From contig JAZDHK010000031.1 of NCBI GenBank assembly GCA_043806035.1, positions 1 through 10,616 of the forward strand: a DNA stretch of 10,616 nt, in the 5' to 3' direction. Shown piece by piece: positions 1 through 10,616 of this stretch; the first letter of the stretch is position 1, and the number at the start of each line of letters is the position of its first letter. Made by a program: the position numbers and the translations under genes. Below the pieces are notes generated by a model. That model ran no database searches and was not told the origin of the DNA. It worked only from the letters and a program-made list of their open reading frames with translations. This stretch comes from an archaeon (lineage in GTDB: Archaea > Nanobdellota > Nanobdellia > Woesearchaeales > UBA9642).

Positions 1-121
1 TCCCCCCACCCGGATTTGAACCGGGAACACCTCGGTAACGGCTGAGTGCAATTCATCCGATCTCTCAGAGACTGTCGTGCACCGTCTACAGCCGAGTGCT
101 CTACCGTTGAGCTATGAGGGG
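1..121 (-). tRNA. tRNA-Tyr(GTA) with 49-nt intron (37..85) at the canonical 37/38 position
   Basis: Reverse complement reads CCCCTCA TAGCTCAACGGTAGAGCA CTCGG CT GTA G [49 nt] A CCGAG GTGTT CCCGG TTCAAAT CCGGG TGGGGGG A. All four stems pair and the mature length is 72 nt. C1:G72/A73 and the short variable arm are archaeal/eukaryal Tyr identity features. Confidence 0.96.
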
Positions 122-143
122 TAGTGTCAGAAGAAATAAGCAA

Positions 144-296: not shown

Positions 297-1541
297 TTAC
301 TTGAGCAGCACCATTTTCTTGCTGACGCTAAAATGCTGAGTCTCCAGTCTGTAAATGTACACGCCTGCAGGAAATGCTTCACCGTTGAAGGTGATGTTGT
401 AGTTCCCTGCTGCTTGTGGCTCGCTGACTAAGGTAGCAACTTCTACTCCTAAAACATTAAACACGCTAAGCCCGACAGGGCCGTTCTCTGCTAGCTCATA
501 CGTAATTTTTGTTGTGGGATTAAACGGATTAGGATAATTCTGGCATAATTTCGCTGTTTGCATAGTGGGTGCCCCGGCAGTATGCACTAGGTTAGTATGT
601 CCAATCACTTCTTCAACACCGCTCATGTCCTTCTGTGTCAGCGTGTACCAATACTCCTGATCATGCGTTACCATTTGATCTACATAGGAATACTGCTGTT
701 GCGTTTCGCTATCTCCAAAGCTTGGTACGATCACTAACCGTGAACTGTCCGTAGCATCTTTTTGTAACTTACGCCAAACGCCAAACCAATCATTATGCTG
801 TTCACTTGCCGTATTCCAATAGAGCGTAATTCCTTCAATTCCCGACTGGGCAGTAAAGCTGGTGAGCGTGACAGGAAGCACCTGATCGCGATAATACGAC
901 TCTGCTTCATGAGGAGTAAGATAATAATCAACAGCAACAAGATAATCAAGATGCATTCCCCGCGTTCCTGCACGAATAGTATCAGGTGCTAACGATGCAA
1001 GCAGCCCCGACCGTTCCGCACTTGCAATTGCCATCTCATCGCCAGAAAAATACATTCCATACACGCCCTGCCCACCCCAACTCGTCATTACAAAAAACGG
1101 ATCAGTGGATCTGCCTACACGAGGAACAAACAACGTACTATCCGGCAAAATGCCCGGATGCGTAATTTTTACACCATCAGCATTCAATGTCATGACAATA
1201 TCATGGTCAAGCCGAGCAATAACTTTTGAGCCGGATTCATGCAGTCGACCAGCGATGCCAAAAGCTCCTGCAGTAAAATTCACAGCGGTTTCACCGCCAT
1301 GATTATTCACGTATGCCAATGGGCCGTCAACAATAACTGCTGATCCCTCTACTGCTGGAACGCAGTCTACAATGTTACTTGTTCCGACGTTAACTCTTCC
1401 CTGTTCTGACATGGTGGCGGTAGTGCTTGGACAGGTGTAGTGCCACACGTCACCTAACACTTGCTGACTGGTAGAGAGCAGTAATCCAACTCCGAATACG
1501 ATACCGCTAATGATGCTTCTTGGTCGTGCTATGCATATCAC
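297..1541 (-). CDS. Secreted protein with bacterial T9SS (Por secretion) type-A C-terminal sorting domain
   Basis: 414 aa, GTG start, N-terminal signal-like hydrophobic stretch. Contains an LPVTLTSFTA...LYWNTASE Ig-like module and a C-terminal LCQNYPNPFNPTTKITYEL...AGVYIYRL...KKMVLLK, the typical FCB-group sorting domain. The N-terminal ~215 aa are not recognised. Confidence 0.92.
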   Translation of the reverse strand: MICIARPRSIISGIVFGVGLLLSTSQQVLGDVWHYTCPSTTATMSEQGRVNVGTSNIVDCVPAVEGSAVIVDGPLAYVNNHGGETAVNFTAGAFGIAGRLHESGSKVIARLDHDIVMTLNADGVKITHPGILPDSTLFVPRVGRSTDPFFVMTSWGGQGVYGMYFSGDEMAIASAERSGLLASLAPDTIRAGTRGMHLDYLVAVDYYLTPHEAESYYRDQVLPVTLTSFTAQSGIEGITLYWNTASEQHNDWFGVWRKLQKDATDSSRLVIVPSFGDSETQQQYSYVDQMVTHDQEYWYTLTQKDMSGVEEVIGHTNLVHTAGAPTMQTAKLCQNYPNPFNPTTKITYELAENGPVGLSVFNVLGVEVATLVSEPQAAGNYNITFNGEAFPAGVYIYRLETQHFSVSKKMVLLK

Positions 1542-6227: not shown

Positions 6228-6446
6228 TCAGGATTGCACGAGCCCACGGTACATGATGTCGATGTACTTGCCCCAATCACCCTTGTTCCGCACAAGAAAT
6301 CCCTTGATGCCACCCCTAAGAAAATGGATCATCTCCTCATCGACATTGATTACCTTACAATCGCCGATCTCTCGTACAAGTTCCGGAGCGAGCGTTGACT
6401 TCCCCGCACATCTCGGGCCGACGATTGCGAGGATGTCATCAGACAT
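6228..6446 (-). pseudogene. Truncated P-loop kinase (shikimate/nucleotide kinase-like) N-terminal fragment
   Basis: MSDDILAIVGPRCAGKSTLAPEL...INVDEEM gives Walker A plus the next strand and Asp. Only 72 aa long; it ends at TGA directly before the next gene's promoter, leaving no room for the C-terminal half. Confidence 0.7.
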
Positions 6447-6502
6447 AGCCACAAACACGACATTCGACTATTTACGTGTTGTCCTGCAACAAATGTGCGC
6501 AA

Positions 6503-6582
6503 GATTCGAGCTGACGGAACTACCGACGGTGGTATTGCGTCATTTCATGTTTTTTGCTCTATTCTCAACGTCTTTGAACCCA
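6503..6582 (-). repeat. 80-nt structured element, copy 1 (3' of fic)
   Basis: Ungapped 65/80 match to 9418-9497 (counted by hand). Minus strand reads TGGGTTCAAAGAC...CGTCAGCTCGAATC. Confidence 0.92.
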
Positions 6583-6599
6583 GTTTGGCCACCTCCAGA

Positions 6600-6613
6600 A
6601 AAGGTGTCTACAT
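6600..6613 (+). repeat. 14-bp direct repeat AAAGGTGTCTACAT at the fic 3' end
   Basis: Identical to 7534-7547; lies 2 nt beyond the fic stop codon. Confidence 0.88.
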
Positions 6614-6615
6614 AA

Positions 6616-7524
6616 TCACTTTCGTAGACCCCTATACTGTTTCTTGTACTGTGCGCGCAGGAATTTGAGGGTTGGAAGAATGCTGCCTGTCTGGTCAAAT
6701 GCGTGCAGGCGCGAGTAATACTGCTTGCGGTCTGTGAGTCTAACGTTCAACGGGGGATGGTCATGACTGAGTAGCACATAGTTGAGCAGCAGTCTTCCAA
6801 CCCGCCCATTGCCGTCTTGGAACGGATGGATGTTCTCGAACTGGTTGTGCACCAGAGCAGCAAGCAGCAGCGCAGGATATTTCTTTTTATGCTTGTCATA
6901 CCAGCCTACCAATTCTTGAAGAAGTTTCTGGACCTGTTTGTAGGGAGCTCCGTGGTGGATGATATGGCCTTGTGCATCACGGATGACAACGTCCACTGTT
7001 CTGAGCTTGCCGGCAAACGGCTTTGTTCCTTTGAAACAGAGCTCATGCAGCTTCAGAATCATTGGTACAGAGAATGATTCTTTCGTGGTTTTGATGTATG
7101 CGATTGCACCTGCCATGTTGATGGTTTCTTGCTCTTCATCATTTTGAGGAGGTTCCTTCTTCTCAATGAGCGCTTCAACCTCTTTGTACGCGACAGTGGA
7201 TCCTTCGATAGCATTTGTGTTGTACGTGAATTCTTTGGTGAAGCGTTCCCAGTCAACGTTCTGTAAATGCTCTATCTTTAGGTTCTGGTCGTATTTTTTG
7301 TATATCTTAATGTCCTCAGGCGTGAGTTCATAGGCATACGCTGATTTTTCTTTCATCTGCTCCAGTACGTGTAGTTCTGCTTTGATTCTCGCTTTCTGCA
7401 ACGATATCGCATCAAGACCCGACCCAAGATAACGAGAAATCCTCTTTACCTTGCCACCCACCCTGTACGTGTGGACAAGATACTGCTTCCTCACCTTCCC
7501 CTGCTTGCGGATTTCGACGAACAT
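6616..7524 (-). CDS. fic: Fic-domain protein (AMPylase) with an N-terminal basic beta-sheet module
   Basis: Canonical HPFQDGNGRVGR motif, with TNAIEGST at the inhibitory-helix position. Start reassigned to ATG 7524 (MFVEIRK, 302 aa) because a TATA box lies 23-31 nt upstream. Confidence 0.95.
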   Translation of the reverse strand: MFVEIRKQGKVRKQYLVHTYRVGGKVKRISRYLGSGLDAISLQKARIKAELHVLEQMKEKSAYAYELTPEDIKIYKKYDQNLKIEHLQNVDWERFTKEFTYNTNAIEGSTVAYKEVEALIEKKEPPQNDEEQETINMAGAIAYIKTTKESFSVPMILKLHELCFKGTKPFAGKLRTVDVVIRDAQGHIIHHGAPYKQVQKLLQELVGWYDKHKKKYPALLLAALVHNQFENIHPFQDGNGRVGRLLLNYVLLSHDHPPLNVRLTDRKQYYSRLHAFDQTGSILPTLKFLRAQYKKQYRGLRK

Positions 7525-7533
7525 ACAGAGAAT

Positions 7534-7577
7534 AAAGGTGTCTACATTTATAAAATTAGCGATATTTGTAGACACCT
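7534..7577 (-). promoter_or_regulatory. fic promoter: TATA box enclosed by an 11-bp perfect inverted repeat (putative operator)
   Basis: AGGTGTCTACA (7536-7546) and TGTAGACACCT (7567-7577) flank TTTTATAAA (minus strand, 7555-7547). Confidence 0.8.
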
Positions 7578-7590
7578 GCTAATAATTGGA

Positions 7591-7610
7591 TGGGGGTGGG
7601 AGGATTCGAA
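7591..7610 (-). repeat. Duplicated tRNA-Pro 3' end (att-like site)
   Basis: TTCGAATCCTCCCACCCCCA matches the tRNA-Pro 3' end TTCAAATCCTCCCAGCCCCA (10496-10477) at 18/20 in the same orientation. The trailers are also alike (TCCAATTATT vs TCTATTATT). Confidence 0.9.
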
Positions 7611-7670: not shown

Positions 7671-7933
7671 ATATTCGATGACGATCTGCGCTGGAAAGGG
7701 AAGATGCTCGTCTTCACCTGGCATTTCAAAGAGGAATGGGATTCGCTGCGCAAGCCGCTCGAATTCGTGCTGATTATTCTTGAGAAAGGAGAGCATGTGC
7801 GCGTCGCCAAGAAAGAGAACAAGTATAACGTCTGCTACCCATTCAGAGGCAGACACTTGTGCTTGTCGAACACGAGAACATCATCCTCATCCATATCAAG
7901 CCTACAACCAAGAAATTCGGAGGGAGAAAATGA
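7671..7933 (+). pseudogene. Frameshifted putative type II toxin (DUF4258/RelE-like)
   Basis: The first frame gives (I)FDDDLRWKGKMLVFTWHFKEEW...ILEKGEHVRVAKKENKYNVCYPF. The -1 frame continues ...VEHENIILIHIKPTTKKFGGRK*, and its TGA overlaps the antitoxin ATG (ATGA 7930-7933). The codon after the SD is ATA, not ATG. The family call is by motif resemblance. Confidence 0.65.
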
Positions 7934-8250
7934 AATTCATGAACACCTGCTACAAGTGCGGAACGAACGTGAAACAGGCAAAAATAGTCAAGGAAGGCAT
8001 CACGCTGACGTGCATGAAATGCCCGAAATGCGGCGAAGAATACTACACCTCAAGCGAGCTCCTGCGCTTTGACGTGCTGACGGGCAAGAGAAAACTCGTG
8101 CGCAAGTTCGGGACTCTTGGAGATAGCACCATCCTGCGCATTCCTCCAGAAGTGCTCAAGGATTTCAACATCAAGCCCGAGGACTACGCGCTCTTCGAGA
8201 AGAAAGACGACGGCATCTTCATACGGCCAGTGAGTGCAAAAGAGACCTGA
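7930..8250 (+). CDS. Putative antitoxin: MqsA/YgiT-like zinc ribbon fused to an AbrB/MazE/SpoVT DNA-binding domain
   Basis: 106 aa from ATG 7930 (SD GGAGG upstream). CYKC...CPKCGEEY ribbon, then RKFGTLGDSTILRIPPEVLKDFNIKPED swapped-hairpin motif. Confidence 0.88.
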   Translation: MKFMNTCYKCGTNVKQAKIVKEGITLTCMKCPKCGEEYYTSSELLRFDVLTGKRKLVRKFGTLGDSTILRIPPEVLKDFNIKPEDYALFEKKDDGIFIRPVSAKET

Positions 8251-8630
8251 TGAAAATAGAGAGTGACAAGACAGGACGAAGAACATACAAATTTAGCCAT
8301 TCCACTGCCCAAGGGGGAAACCTCTACGCCCATAAAGTCAAGCAGGGCACTATTGAAAACAAAGAGGGGTTAAAGAATGCGCTGCATGCAGTCTCCGTGA
8401 GATTCAAGCTCATAGATCCAACAGTAAAAGTGTACGACACCATTTTCCTTTTCTTCTTCCATATTCCTAAAGCATTAGCTCCAGCAGAACTCATCGACTC
8501 TATACAGAAAAATACTGATGCTTATGCCGATTGGGATGAGGAGTATTTATTTACTGGAGTGTACGACTTGCAGGAAAAGTACATCAGAAAAGACCTAGAA
8601 CAGTGGGAACTTGACTATGACCAAGGATAA
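8250..8630 (+). CDS. IS200/IS605 TnpA (Y1 HUH)-like protein lacking catalytic residues
   Basis: 126 aa, TGATG-coupled to the antitoxin. Colinear by eye with the TnpA consensus: HS; KVYDTIFLFFFHIP vs EVMPDHVHLLVSIP; LAPAELIDSIQK vs LSPSEIVQRLKG; WDEEYLFTGV vs WSRSYFVSTV; IRKDLEQW vs IKKYIENQ. Confidence 0.7.
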   Translation: MKIESDKTGRRTYKFSHSTAQGGNLYAHKVKQGTIENKEGLKNALHAVSVRFKLIDPTVKVYDTIFLFFFHIPKALAPAELIDSIQKNTDAYADWDEEYLFTGVYDLQEKYIRKDLEQWELDYDQG

Positions 8631-8650
8631 GTCGCCTGAGACGTAGGAAC

Positions 8651-9376
8651 ATGAGAAAAGTGACGTTTGAGCATGAGGGGAAGACATACTCGCTCTTCAT
8701 CCACAACGAGGCCAGAGATGATATGCGCGTCTCGCTCGGCAAGACAGGTGTGCACTTGCGTATCCCGAGCGATATCTCCCGTGACGAATACTTCCGCCAA
8801 GTTATGCATGCGAAGGAGTGGGCGAAACAAAGGATTTCCAATAGCCCGGAGATCCGCGACAAAGGGTGGAAAGAGTATCATTCTGGCGATGCCTTGACTG
8901 TCGGAGACAAGACATACACACTGCAGATCACACAGCGACCAGCAAGAGGCAGTGCCGCACGAATTGTCGGGAGCACTATTGAGCTAAGGCTCTCCTCACA
9001 GGATACTGATGCACAGCGCAGAGAGGCGACGTCAGTACTCTTGAGCAGGCTCATCGGTGGCTCTCGATTGCCTGCATTGCAGCAACGGGTCAAGACACTT
9101 AACGAACAGCACTTCCAGTTCCGGCTTGGCAAGATTAGCTTCAAATACAGCATCTCACGTTGGGGAAGCTGCTCGAAGAGCGGCAATGTCAACCTCTCGA
9201 CCCGGCTGCTCTTCGCTCCCGACGACGTGCTCGACTACGTGTGCATCCACGAGCTTGCCCATCTCAGAGAGCATAATCATTCACCTGCATTCTGGAAGCT
9301 GGTCGAGACAGCCATGCCAGACTACAAAGAGAAGGAGCAGTGGCTCAAGGAGCACGGGGATGCATGCTGGTTTTAG
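8651..9376 (+). CDS. YgjP/DUF45 (SprT-like, M48-related) zinc metallohydrolase
   Basis: 241 aa. SRWGSCS...NVNLSTRL...LDYVCIHELAHLREHNHSPAFWKLV...PDYK signature with HExxH. Confidence 0.93.
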   Translation: MRKVTFEHEGKTYSLFIHNEARDDMRVSLGKTGVHLRIPSDISRDEYFRQVMHAKEWAKQRISNSPEIRDKGWKEYHSGDALTVGDKTYTLQITQRPARGSAARIVGSTIELRLSSQDTDAQRREATSVLLSRLIGGSRLPALQQRVKTLNEQHFQFRLGKISFKYSISRWGSCSKSGNVNLSTRLLFAPDDVLDYVCIHELAHLREHNHSPAFWKLVETAMPDYKEKEQWLKEHGDACWF

Positions 9377-9417
9377 CAAACGTGAGGCTCGGCGCAACAC
9401 AAGCACGAACTAATGAG

Positions 9418-9497
9418 GATTCGAGCCGACGACACTACCGACGATGGCAACGCGTCATCCTCTGTTTTCTGCTCTATGCTCATGGTCTTTGAACCCA
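9418..9497 (-). repeat. 80-nt structured element, copy 2 (3' of the lipoprotein gene)
   Basis: 65/80 identical to 6503-6582. Separated from the TAG stop of 9499..10377 by one nucleotide. Ends in TCGAATCCTC, identical to 7609-7600. Confidence 0.92.
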
Positions 9498-9498
9498 A

Positions 9499-10377
9499 CT
9501 ACACAATGCTCAGAATCTGCCTTTGCACGACAAATGCTCCAGTTTCCTTATCGACTGCAAATGCGGATAGGACGTAGCTCATACGACCAACATACCCGTT
9601 ATTCGTATACATGCCAGGATTTAGTTGTGTATATTCAACAAAGTTGATAGTTATGATGTTGTTATCCTCTTGGATAGTCTCCTGGACGTAATCTCTGTGG
9701 AAGGGCGTGTAGAATAGCTGCTCCAAAAGAGACGCCCGCATGAATTCTGCGGCTTCTTTGACGGATGTAGTTGTGAGTGGTCGGAAGTCCAGCACTCCTG
9801 TCGTGACATTGAATCGCTCTGCAGGCACATCAGCGGTAAGATTCCTGAATATTTGTTGATGACCAATTATTGCCTGATAATCAAGAGAAGATATGTAGCT
9901 GCACTTGATGATGCGCAGGTGATAGTATCTCGTATGGAGATATTCTGGACTGGTTGTATCCTCATATGTGTCAACTGCTTCGAAATACTTTTCTGTTTCA
10001 CTTGTTTCGTGATTGATAAGTCTGAGGTCTGCGCCCATCGTGGCGAGCGAGAACCATTCCTGGGCTTGCGTAGCACTATCCGTGCATAGGAAGGAGGCAG
10101 TGCCATGAGAAGTGGCATTAAGGTAGTTGCTGTTAAAATAGCTCAGAAATGCTCTATCATGATAATCGTCTGACGCATGCAAGACGTCTAAGTACTCAAA
10201 CGAGGAATTCGTCAGGGAATGATCCGTACCATTCAGTTGCGGAAAGGACGGTGGGACAATAGCAGGAGAGATGTTGTTGTTCGAGGATGTTTGTATTGGT
10301 TCGGCTACTGGTTGACAGCTCGCAATAAAGAGAATAACTAGCAGTCCTCCAATCATGAGCATAGTATTGTTCCCCAT
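9499..10377 (-). CDS. Hypothetical secreted protein or lipoprotein
   Basis: 292 aa. Hydrophobic N-terminus ending FIASC, a Pro/Ser/Asn linker, and six N-x-S/T sequons after the Cys. No family recognised. Confidence 0.82.
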   Translation of the reverse strand: MGNNTMLMIGGLLVILFIASCQPVAEPIQTSSNNNISPAIVPPSFPQLNGTDHSLTNSSFEYLDVLHASDDYHDRAFLSYFNSNYLNATSHGTASFLCTDSATQAQEWFSLATMGADLRLINHETSETEKYFEAVDTYEDTTSPEYLHTRYYHLRIIKCSYISSLDYQAIIGHQQIFRNLTADVPAERFNVTTGVLDFRPLTTTSVKEAAEFMRASLLEQLFYTPFHRDYVQETIQEDNNIITINFVEYTQLNPGMYTNNGYVGRMSYVLSAFAVDKETGAFVVQRQILSIV

Positions 10378-10413: not shown

Positions 10414-10476
10414 TTATCTTCAATTGTGTTGGCAGTCTAGTGCCTACAACATATCACTCACGTCAGAAATAATAGA

Positions 10477-10564
10477 TGGGGCTGGGAGGATTTGAACCCC
10501 CGATCTCTACCATTCTGGCGTTTTGTCCCCAAGGTAGAATCATACCAAGCTAGACCACAGCCCC
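10477..10564 (-). tRNA. tRNA-Pro(GGG) with 14-nt intron (10513..10526) at 37/38
   Basis: GGGGCTG TGGTCTAGCTTGGTATGATT CTACC TT GGG G [ACAAAACGCCAGAA] T GGTAG AGATC GGGGG TTCAAAT CCTCC CAGCCCC A. Bulge-helix-bulge central helix UUGG/CCAG with two 3-nt bulges; mature length 74 nt. Confidence 0.96.
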
Positions 10565-10589
10565 GTTTCTGAGAAAGAGTTCCCGCTAT

Positions 10590-10597
10590 TATTTAAA
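10590..10597 (-). promoter_or_regulatory. TATA box of tRNA-Pro
   Basis: TTTAAATA on the minus strand, 26-33 nt upstream of the tRNA. Confidence 0.75.
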
Positions 10598-10616
10598 GAT
10601 AACGTTGCTCGCATGT

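Follow-up and report, generated by a model that had tools for sequence, protein, structure and literature searches.

The contig and its genes

The window analysed here, 10,616 nt in length, is an entire contig (C31) of a 1.5-Mb genome that is assembled in 42 contigs and estimated to be 93.7% complete. With introns allowed, ARAGORN finds 43 tRNA genes in this genome, most of them interrupted in the anticodon loop, a tRNA set that identifies the genome as archaeal. The contig has a tRNA gene at either end, both on the minus strand: a tRNA-Tyr(GTA) gene with a 49-nt intron occupies positions 1 to 121, and a second intron-bearing gene occupies positions 10477 to 10564. The latter is labelled Ser-GGA by ARAGORN, with an intron of 14 nt; in our own reading, in which the intron stands at the canonical position 37/38, it would be a tRNA-Pro-GGG.

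The first 141 nt of the contig are identical to the start of contig C11, at the tRNA-Tyr gene, and the last 141 nt to the end of contig C4, at the tRNA gene at 10477-10564; overlaps of exactly this length at both tRNA ends indicate that the assembly graph branches there. Other contigs of the same sample share the tRNA and then diverge, at positions 10472 and 10476. The sample is a biofilm from a single study; two of the three listed sequencing runs belong to it and contain part of the window, and none listed as containing it is RNA. The sample contigs matching the window are short and have a depth of 2.5-5.5; one of them spans positions 9345-9525 without any difference, and no joint touches the repeated element that is the subject of this work.

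Followed along the minus strand from the tRNA gene at 10477-10564, the features succeed one another in the order tRNA, 292-aa gene, repeat copy E2, a block of plus-strand genes, a tRNA fragment, a Fic gene, repeat copy E1 and a P-loop fragment. The 292-aa gene (9499-10377, minus strand) is an orphan: its product has a hydrophobic N-terminus and matches no family, the gene was found in none of 400 other genomes of the order, and a protein atlas gave no usable lead. The plus-strand block (7780-9376), which extends from the tRNA fragment to E2, comprises a zinc-finger/AbrB-MazE-like gene (7780-8250), a gene for a protein of 126 amino acids (8250-8630) and a YgjP-like metallopeptidase gene (8651-9376). 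The tRNA fragment is followed first by the Fic/DOC-domain gene (6616-7575, minus strand), which shows no relationship to the 292-aa gene (BLASTP E-value 0.45); relatives of neither were found in viral contigs. Finally, the truncated P-loop gene (6228-6458, minus strand) retains a 76-aa N-terminal part of an ATPase or kinase, and its truncation is a sign of decay in the region.

The tRNA fragment (7591-7610, minus strand) runs from the T-loop to the acceptor end and has two mismatches to positions 10477-10496 of the tRNA gene. It belongs to a 22-nt repeat (7589-7610 and 10475-10496) of 91% identity, for which chance would predict 0 matches. The fragment is an orphan, as its end recurs in no complete tRNA of the genome, and no further decayed tRNA 3' fragment better than chance exists in the window. 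Elements that integrate site-specifically into tRNA genes usually leave such 3'-end fragments behind, and this one looks like an att-type direct repeat of that origin. There is no integrase on the contig; seven tyrosine-recombinase matches occur elsewhere in the genome, at the C20, C39, C1, C34, C30 and C24 loci.

The YgjP part has a GC content of 52-55% and the adjoining 292-aa gene one of 43-46%. Together with the tRNA fragment, the branching at the contig ends, the divergence among contigs of the sample and the presence of a Fic gene, an AbrB/MazE-like gene and a truncated ATPase, these shifts identify the region as a variable, mosaic island.

A repeated element behind two unrelated genes

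A repeat finder run on the window yields a single strong repeat family, made of E1 (6503-6582) and E2 (9418-9497), two direct copies of 80 nt that are 81% identical and spaced by 2915 nt (about 2.8 kb). In a blastn comparison against the whole genome the pair reaches an E-value of 1e-13, which rules out chance similarity. The 15 differences, nine transitions and six transversions, are scattered over the element, and the longest identical run is of 13 nt. The likeness is cut off sharply at both borders, beyond which the flanks have no similarity at all, and the longest conserved blocks are those at the two ends. The first-pass annotation, which had proposed an 80-nt repeated element from the letters alone, was therefore describing a real one, as the identity, the borders and the blastn value attest.

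Both copies have the same orientation and lie directly behind minus-strand stops. E2 is found 1 nt past the stop of the 292-aa gene and 41 nt past that of the YgjP-like gene on the plus strand, filling the convergent intergenic gap of 122 nt between the two, while E1 sits between tandem genes, with the Fic stop 33 nt before it and the truncated P-loop ATPase gene starting 44 nt after it. The order "tRNA 3'-end sequence, one gene, element" is found twice, over spans of 1079 and 1108 nt.

The minus-strand fold and its statistical weight

When the two copies are aligned in minus-strand orientation, RNAalifold gives a consensus of 19 pairs in four helices at -15.8 kcal/mol: GGGTTC/GAATCY on the outside, then GAGC/GCTC, then TGACG/CGTCR, and finally TRCC/GGTA, which closes a hexaloop. 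This is exactly the four-helix structure that the first-pass annotation had drawn. The consensus fold of the plus strand is a different and weaker one, at -8.45 kcal/mol. Standard pairs fill 38 of the 38 pair cells; shifting the 3' partners by 1-3 columns leaves 24-45% of the cells with standard pairs. The pair count also agrees with the earlier statement that 13 of the 15 differences fall outside the stems and that the two inside them are G:U-compatible on the minus strand only; the same applies to the Y just beyond the repeat. There are thus three one-sided pair changes (G:C to G:U, U:A to U:G and A:U to G:U, in minus-strand terms), and two-sided, compensatory changes are seen in none of the 19 pairs, a count to be read with the fact that only two sequences are available and that 500 of 500 shuffles equal the observed value. 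The covariation evidence had been called weak, rightly so. If either strand is eligible, three one-sided changes would all favour the same strand by chance in about one case out of 4.

With respect to energy, the minus-strand consensus stands at z -2.32 against 1000 column shuffles, 1.9% of which are as good, whereas the plus-strand consensus, at z +0.26, is no better than its shuffles. Of the proposal that selection acts on a minus-strand structure, what survives is this mild strand preference; no compensatory change comes to its aid. The differences avoid the paired columns with a hypergeometric P of 0.004-0.011, a value that is inflated because the stems were picked after the conserved letters had been seen. 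Taken one at a time, the copies are ordinary: the minus-strand minimum free energies (MFE) give z -0.60 and -0.42 over 96 nt, and z -1.17 and -0.69 over 81 nt.

The four helices differ markedly in their pairing probabilities. Helix 4 is formed with a probability of 0.92-0.93 in every RNA context. Helix 3 reaches 0.99 in E1 and 0.06-0.52 in E2, in which the ensemble favours a shifted register; the claim that both copies fold identically holds for the consensus, but not for the ensemble of E2. The outer GGGTTC/GAATCY stem has a probability of 0.56-0.82 only when the element is excised exactly, and of at most 0.05 as soon as 10 nt or more of flank are included, or under DNA parameters. The pair probabilities and the shuffles single out a core hairpin composed of helices 3 and 4 (9427-9457 in E2 and 6512-6542 in E1, minus strand), an imperfect palindrome TGACG...CGTCA with TACC/GGTA nested inside it in E1. 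This hairpin of 31-32 nt, with MFE z of -2.2 and -2.9, is the sole thermodynamically robust part of the element, and no other instance of its pattern occurs in the genome. On the predicted folds, we read the element as containing a real hairpin and as mildly preferring the minus strand, and we regard its outer stem as unsupported.

The search for further copies

No third copy was found in the genome itself, in about 1000 related genomes or in three public collections. In its own genome, a blastn search with the element returns E1 and E2 only, the next best match having an E-value of 0.44; among 60 relatives the best is a 17-nt match at 0.03, and 400 genomes of the class give none at an E-value of 0.001 or below. 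The covariance model R1 recovers both known copies in the genome and nothing further. In 18 genomes of the family its best E-value is 0.92, and in 150 genomes of the order the best per-genome E-value is 0.006; these latter matches are AT-rich, have no core hairpin and are due to chance. A pattern spanning the element end to end has no match in 400 other genomes of the order. Exact patterns are equally absent from public genome contigs (two patterns) and from metagenome contigs (two patterns), and the exact core pattern from public viral contigs. A loose pattern of the element's ends has four matches in viral contigs, about what chance would give by our estimate, and their interiors are unlike the element. 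The genus contains this genome alone, and a fast-evolving non-coding piece could therefore be out of reach of such searches.

Known RNA families were equally silent. The comparison with Rfam recommended by the first-pass annotation gave no family, the best matches in Rfam 15 scoring 11-12 bits (E-value 3-6) against gathering scores of 60-66. By eye, the boxes of C/D-box and H/ACA sRNAs are not present in both copies.

A possible remnant of two integrated modules

The explanation that we tentatively prefer is that the element is a possible backbone remnant of two related integrated gene modules, with a hairpin that would mark or protect a transcript 3' end. Two such modules, now devoid of an integrase, could have been laid down in series at the 3' end of the tRNA gene, each consisting, along the minus strand, of a tRNA 3'-end sequence, one cargo gene and the element. 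The position of both copies directly behind minus-strand stops, at 1 and 33 nt and in the same orientation, argues for it, as does the fact that each of the two unrelated cargo genes is preceded by tRNA 3'-end sequence. The spans of 1079 and 1108 nt, the signs of an island, the robust core hairpin, the better minus-strand consensus and the improbability of coding also speak for it. The element would have been brought in with each module and not by local duplication, which cannot account for shared pieces that enclose unrelated genes.

Once transcribed, the hairpin would form at the 3' end of the minus-strand transcript of the cargo gene. There it may act as an end mark or as a protection of the transcript, and as an insulator between the cargo gene and its neighbour. 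In the convergent gap, the hairpin of E2 could also serve the plus-strand YgjP operon. Considered without regard to its origin, the element is possibly a 3'-UTR or 3'-flank motif.

We infer the mobile origin of the element and its role at the transcript end from this arrangement, and several observations weigh on the other side. Both mobility and function are deduced from two copies only, with no homologue elsewhere, and no integrase accompanies them on the contig. No tRNA fragment can be recognised on the distal side of the second module, and E2 lies 1.8 kb inside the segment that is bounded by the two tRNA sequences, not at its end. The ordinary z-scores of the whole element also count against this explanation. 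As to the role at the transcript end, its main weakness is that the minus-strand hairpin of neither E1 nor E2 is followed by a run of at least five T, the usual archaeal termination signal; the T runs that exist are on the plus strand.

Alternative readings

It is also conceivable, if rather unlikely, that the element has no present function and is a decaying leftover of something once common to the two modules, its fold being due to an inherited palindrome. By our estimate, a longest identical run of 13 nt is about what 19% random divergence over 80 nt would leave, and the lack of compensatory pairs, the unremarkable energies of the single copies and the failure of every search to find a homologue all suit a relic. 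Decay of this kind is less easily reconciled with two sharp ends that bear the longest conserved blocks while the flanks have no similarity, or with differences that avoid the paired columns, even if that test is biased. Furthermore, the retention of two copies in a genome of 1.5 Mb, in the same place relative to a gene, wants explaining.

The opposite strand offers another function, that of a plus-strand or bidirectional terminator made of a hairpin and a T run, with which E2 would end the MazE-like/126-aa/YgjP operon and which E1 would have kept after the loss of its plus-strand gene. We regard this as unlikely. A terminator scan of the plus strand picks a hairpin of E2 (9443-9459) with the tail CTCTGTTTTC, which, following the core hairpin, looks like a terminator tail; the plus-strand T runs are a T6 in E1, 8 nt past the hairpin, and a T4 in E2. 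A 96-nt plus-strand window at E2 folds at z -2.64, and a truncated gene does lie beside E1. E2 thus shares with intrinsic-type terminators a hairpin followed by a T-rich tail within a convergent gap. E1 does not share their situation, for it stands between tandem genes where no plus-strand gene ends, and its own plus-strand fold is at z +0.24, in line with the poor plus-strand consensus. All three one-sided stem changes become A:C mismatches on this strand, and the conservation of the element reaches well past the terminator hairpin. Moreover, the number of terminator-like sites in the region, five against 3.2 +/- 1.9 expected, is not above chance.

The first-pass annotation had likened the element to the attC sites of integrons. 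These sites are 57-141 nt long, a range that includes the 80 nt of the element. The likeness extends to its placement 3' of unrelated open reading frames in a fixed orientation, to its conserved, mutually inverted ends with an imperfect inner palindrome, and to a consensus that folds better on one strand. One could accordingly imagine a folded, strand-specific site that delimits single-gene cassettes and on whose minus strand a tyrosine recombinase encoded elsewhere would act; the seven recombinase matches of the genome and the toxin-antitoxin-like genes between E1 and E2 would fit such a system. In archaea, integrase-less attC clusters are reported to be more common than any other form, and the attC copies of one genome are said to resemble each other, as E1 and E2 do (PMC9668308).

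This reading is nevertheless distinctly unlikely. An attC site has an R' box at its 3' end and an inverse R'' box at its 5' end. The R' box, with the motif 5'-G|TTRRRY-3' (PMC9892861), is present in neither copy at the R' position of the 3' end. The only match to GTTRRRY touching the element (9493-9499, minus strand) straddles E2's 5' edge, with nothing corresponding to it in E1, and the window as a whole contains 16 matches where 18.5 are expected. No protein of the genome qualifies as an integron integrase: all ten matches to TIGR02249 stay below the cut-off of 265 bits, and the best of them reaches 114.7. This absence weakens the case for attC membership without excluding it; it is not decisive because the genome is 93.7% complete and integrase-less clusters are known. 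Nor is there a cassette array: the two sites are the only ones, and what separates them is four genes, three of them on the opposite strand, and a tRNA fragment. In addition, the outer stem, in which the R boxes would have to pair, is not stable as single-stranded DNA, with a probability of at most 0.05 under DNA parameters. Set apart by box, integrase, array and stem, the element is not filed here as an attC site, although a similar working is possible.

A bolder variant, for which we see only a very slim chance, places the element outside the integrons altogether, as the folded strand-specific recombination site of a different cassette-capture system. A resident tyrosine recombinase would there capture single genes beside the tRNA by reading the T-loop-like palindrome of the paired ends (GGGTTC and GAATCC), the T-arm of the tRNA and the element being interchangeable to it.

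A related set of proposals makes the element itself tRNA-derived or tRNA-targeting, be it a T-arm that an insertion has interrupted, an att scar at a T-loop or a miniature element that targets T-loops; we consider them very doubtful. They start from letters, and the letters are right: GGGTTC and GAATCC join to GGGTTCGAATCC, as the first-pass annotation had seen, and this 12-mer is present ten times in the genome, nine of them within tRNA genes. The ends, GGGTTCAAA and TCGAATCC(TC), agree with the T-arm of the tRNA next door and with the orphan fragment over its first 10 nt. That fragment does derive from a tRNA 3' end and lies within the same island, in which the stretch from the T-loop to the 3' end does serve as a repeat boundary.

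The likeness of the element to tRNA ends runs out, however, after 9-10 nt, and the shape of a split T-arm is not supported. In the consensus fold the T-loop letters are not looped and pair with each other as helix 1, the least stable one. The tRNA covariance model (RF00005) finds the two true tRNA genes of the window and leaves the element unmatched at an E-value of 1 or below, nor does it give a match even at 10 or below in 151-nt windows. T-stem partners, an acceptor end or a 5' tRNA part are absent from the flanks, as inspected by eye. The four viral-contig matches to the pattern of the ends have interiors unrelated to the element, no other genome of the order among 400 carries the pattern, and target-site duplications are lacking, unlike in the genome's own miniature elements. 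The T-arm look is a likeness of letters only and is not supported as a T-arm. On the preferred explanation, that of a remnant of two modules, it would arise incidentally from the short inverted repeat of GGRTTCRA type at the termini; TTCGAA is its own reverse complement, so that the look need not be tRNA mimicry.

There is barely a chance that the element is part of a small protein. Plus-strand open reading frames at 9413-9577 (54 aa) and 6495-6668 (57 aa) run across both copies in the same frame, with start codons 5-8 nt before the element, and their products match at a BLASTP E-value of 1e-12. The amino-acid identity, 19 of 26 or 19 of 28 residues, is nevertheless below the nucleotide identity of 81%, and of the codon changes in the better of the two open plus-strand frames 3 are synonymous and 7 non-synonymous. 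In their C-terminal halves, which overlap opposite-strand genes at the 3' ends of the latter, the two products show no relationship, and Pfam has no match at an E-value of 1 or below; judged by these changes, the element is unlikely to be coding.

That E1 and E2 could be the template and variable repeats of a diversity-generating retroelement (DGR), as a pair of about 80 nt and 80% identity in a genome with two DGR-like reverse-transcriptase loci, whose adenine-specific repeat pairs are of similar length and identity, has a practically negligible probability and is rejected by the substitution pattern, since at best 8 of the 15 differences fall on adenines of one copy, a figure that is 15 of 19 and 17 of 22 for the two genuine pairs of the genome; the element is also non-coding, and the contig has no reverse transcriptase.

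Place among known repeats and meaning

Broadly, the element can be grouped with the intergenic repeats of mobile islands that carry a hairpin. REP/BIME sequences are intergenic hairpin repeats at the 3' ends of genes, and with these and with miniature inverted-repeat transposable elements (MITEs) the element has in common that it is short and non-coding, has a hairpin core and sharp borders and lies just behind stop codons; it differs from them in having two copies, where they have tens to hundreds, and no target-site duplication.

MITEs proper were considered and set aside. The terminal inverted repeat of the element is imperfect and of only 6-8 nt, without a flanking duplication and in two copies, while the two MITE-like families of the genome have inverted ends of 12-13 nt, duplications of 9-11 nt and at least 7-13 copies. 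Hairpins next to the C8 gene, examined as ends of a Y1 transposase, are unlike the element, and no TnpB match exceeded the cut-off.

If the modest reading is true, the element would be one more short repeat with a hairpin that marks the mosaic gene modules of a tRNA-linked island; it would help to follow the assembly of such islands in small archaeal genomes and have little further use. If units of one gene plus the element were to move with junctions at the ends of the element, they would point to a cassette system outside the integron family.

Sequence signals within the repeat

On the minus strand, both copies of the 80-nt repeat, E1 (6503-6582) and E2 (9418-9497), carry the motif YCGTC twice, 12 nt apart, inside and just 3′ of the loop of the 31-nt core hairpin, with an inverted GACG upstream of the pair. 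In E1 the two motifs begin with C, in E2 they both begin with T. Such a concerted change within a direct repeat could mark a protein-binding site.

Directly downstream of E1 lies a truncated gene, a 76-aa ORF (6228-6458, minus strand) that retains no more than the N-terminal P-loop portion of a protein of the AAA/kinase type. Elsewhere in the window, a 414-aa protein (297-1541, minus strand) bears a C-terminal Por_Secre_tail domain (E 5.8e-08), a type IX secretion sorting domain that is unusual in an archaeal genome.

Mobile elements in the source genome

The source genome encodes a Y1 (IS200-type) transposase (C8:2016-2354), and fragments of another such gene are located at overlapping contig ends (C19:61695-61859 and C35:5-169). 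The hairpins flanking the Y1 transposase gene bear no resemblance to E1 or E2.

Two MITE-like families are also present. The first has a unit of about 133 nt and at least 13 copies of 75-100% identity (e.g., C1:39731-39864, C20:8044-8173, C22:9072-9205 and C10:5410-5543), with inverted ends GGCTTCATCCTGAG... / ...CAGGATGAAGCC and flanking duplications of 9-11 nt; several of its copies occupy contig ends. The second has a unit of about 105-125 nt that ends in the inverted sequences GGCCTTGTTGAA.../...TTCAACAAGGCC and is flanked by duplications of 9 nt; it counts at least seven copies, including C19:15511-15633, C23:30253-30376, C23:51392-51514 and C22:3412-3534.

Furthermore, two loci resembling diversity-generating retroelements (C34:19844-21239 and C1:1718-5254) each contain a reverse-transcriptase gene, that of C1 with one in-frame TAG, and a pair of repeats of about 85 nt whose differences lie almost exclusively at adenines in one of the two copies (15 of 19 in one pair and 17 of 22 in the other). 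The two loci share a 238-nt non-coding stretch at 90% identity.

tRNA genes and the limits of the contig

Introns of 13-66 nt occur in many tRNAs of this genome, and ARAGORN assigns one of 368 nt to a tRNA-Gln(CTG) (C7:21381-21839). The tRNA at 10477-10564 (minus strand) is labeled by the same program as Ser(GGA) with a 14-nt intron; in our own reading, the anticodon would be GGG (Pro) if the intron occupies the canonical 37/38 position, and its variable region, being short, is more in line with Pro than with Ser. An orphan tRNA 3′-end fragment (7591-7610, minus strand) matches positions 10477-10496 of this tRNA with two mismatches, and the source genome has no parent tRNA for it. This fragment and the intact tRNA bound an integrase-less segment of 2.9 kb.

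The two ends of the window (1-141 and 10476-10616) lie at tRNA genes, and each shares precisely 141 nt with another contig, C11 for the first and C4 for the second. This indicates that the assembly graph branches at the tRNAs and, thus, that the contig represents a variable segment with a tRNA gene on either side.
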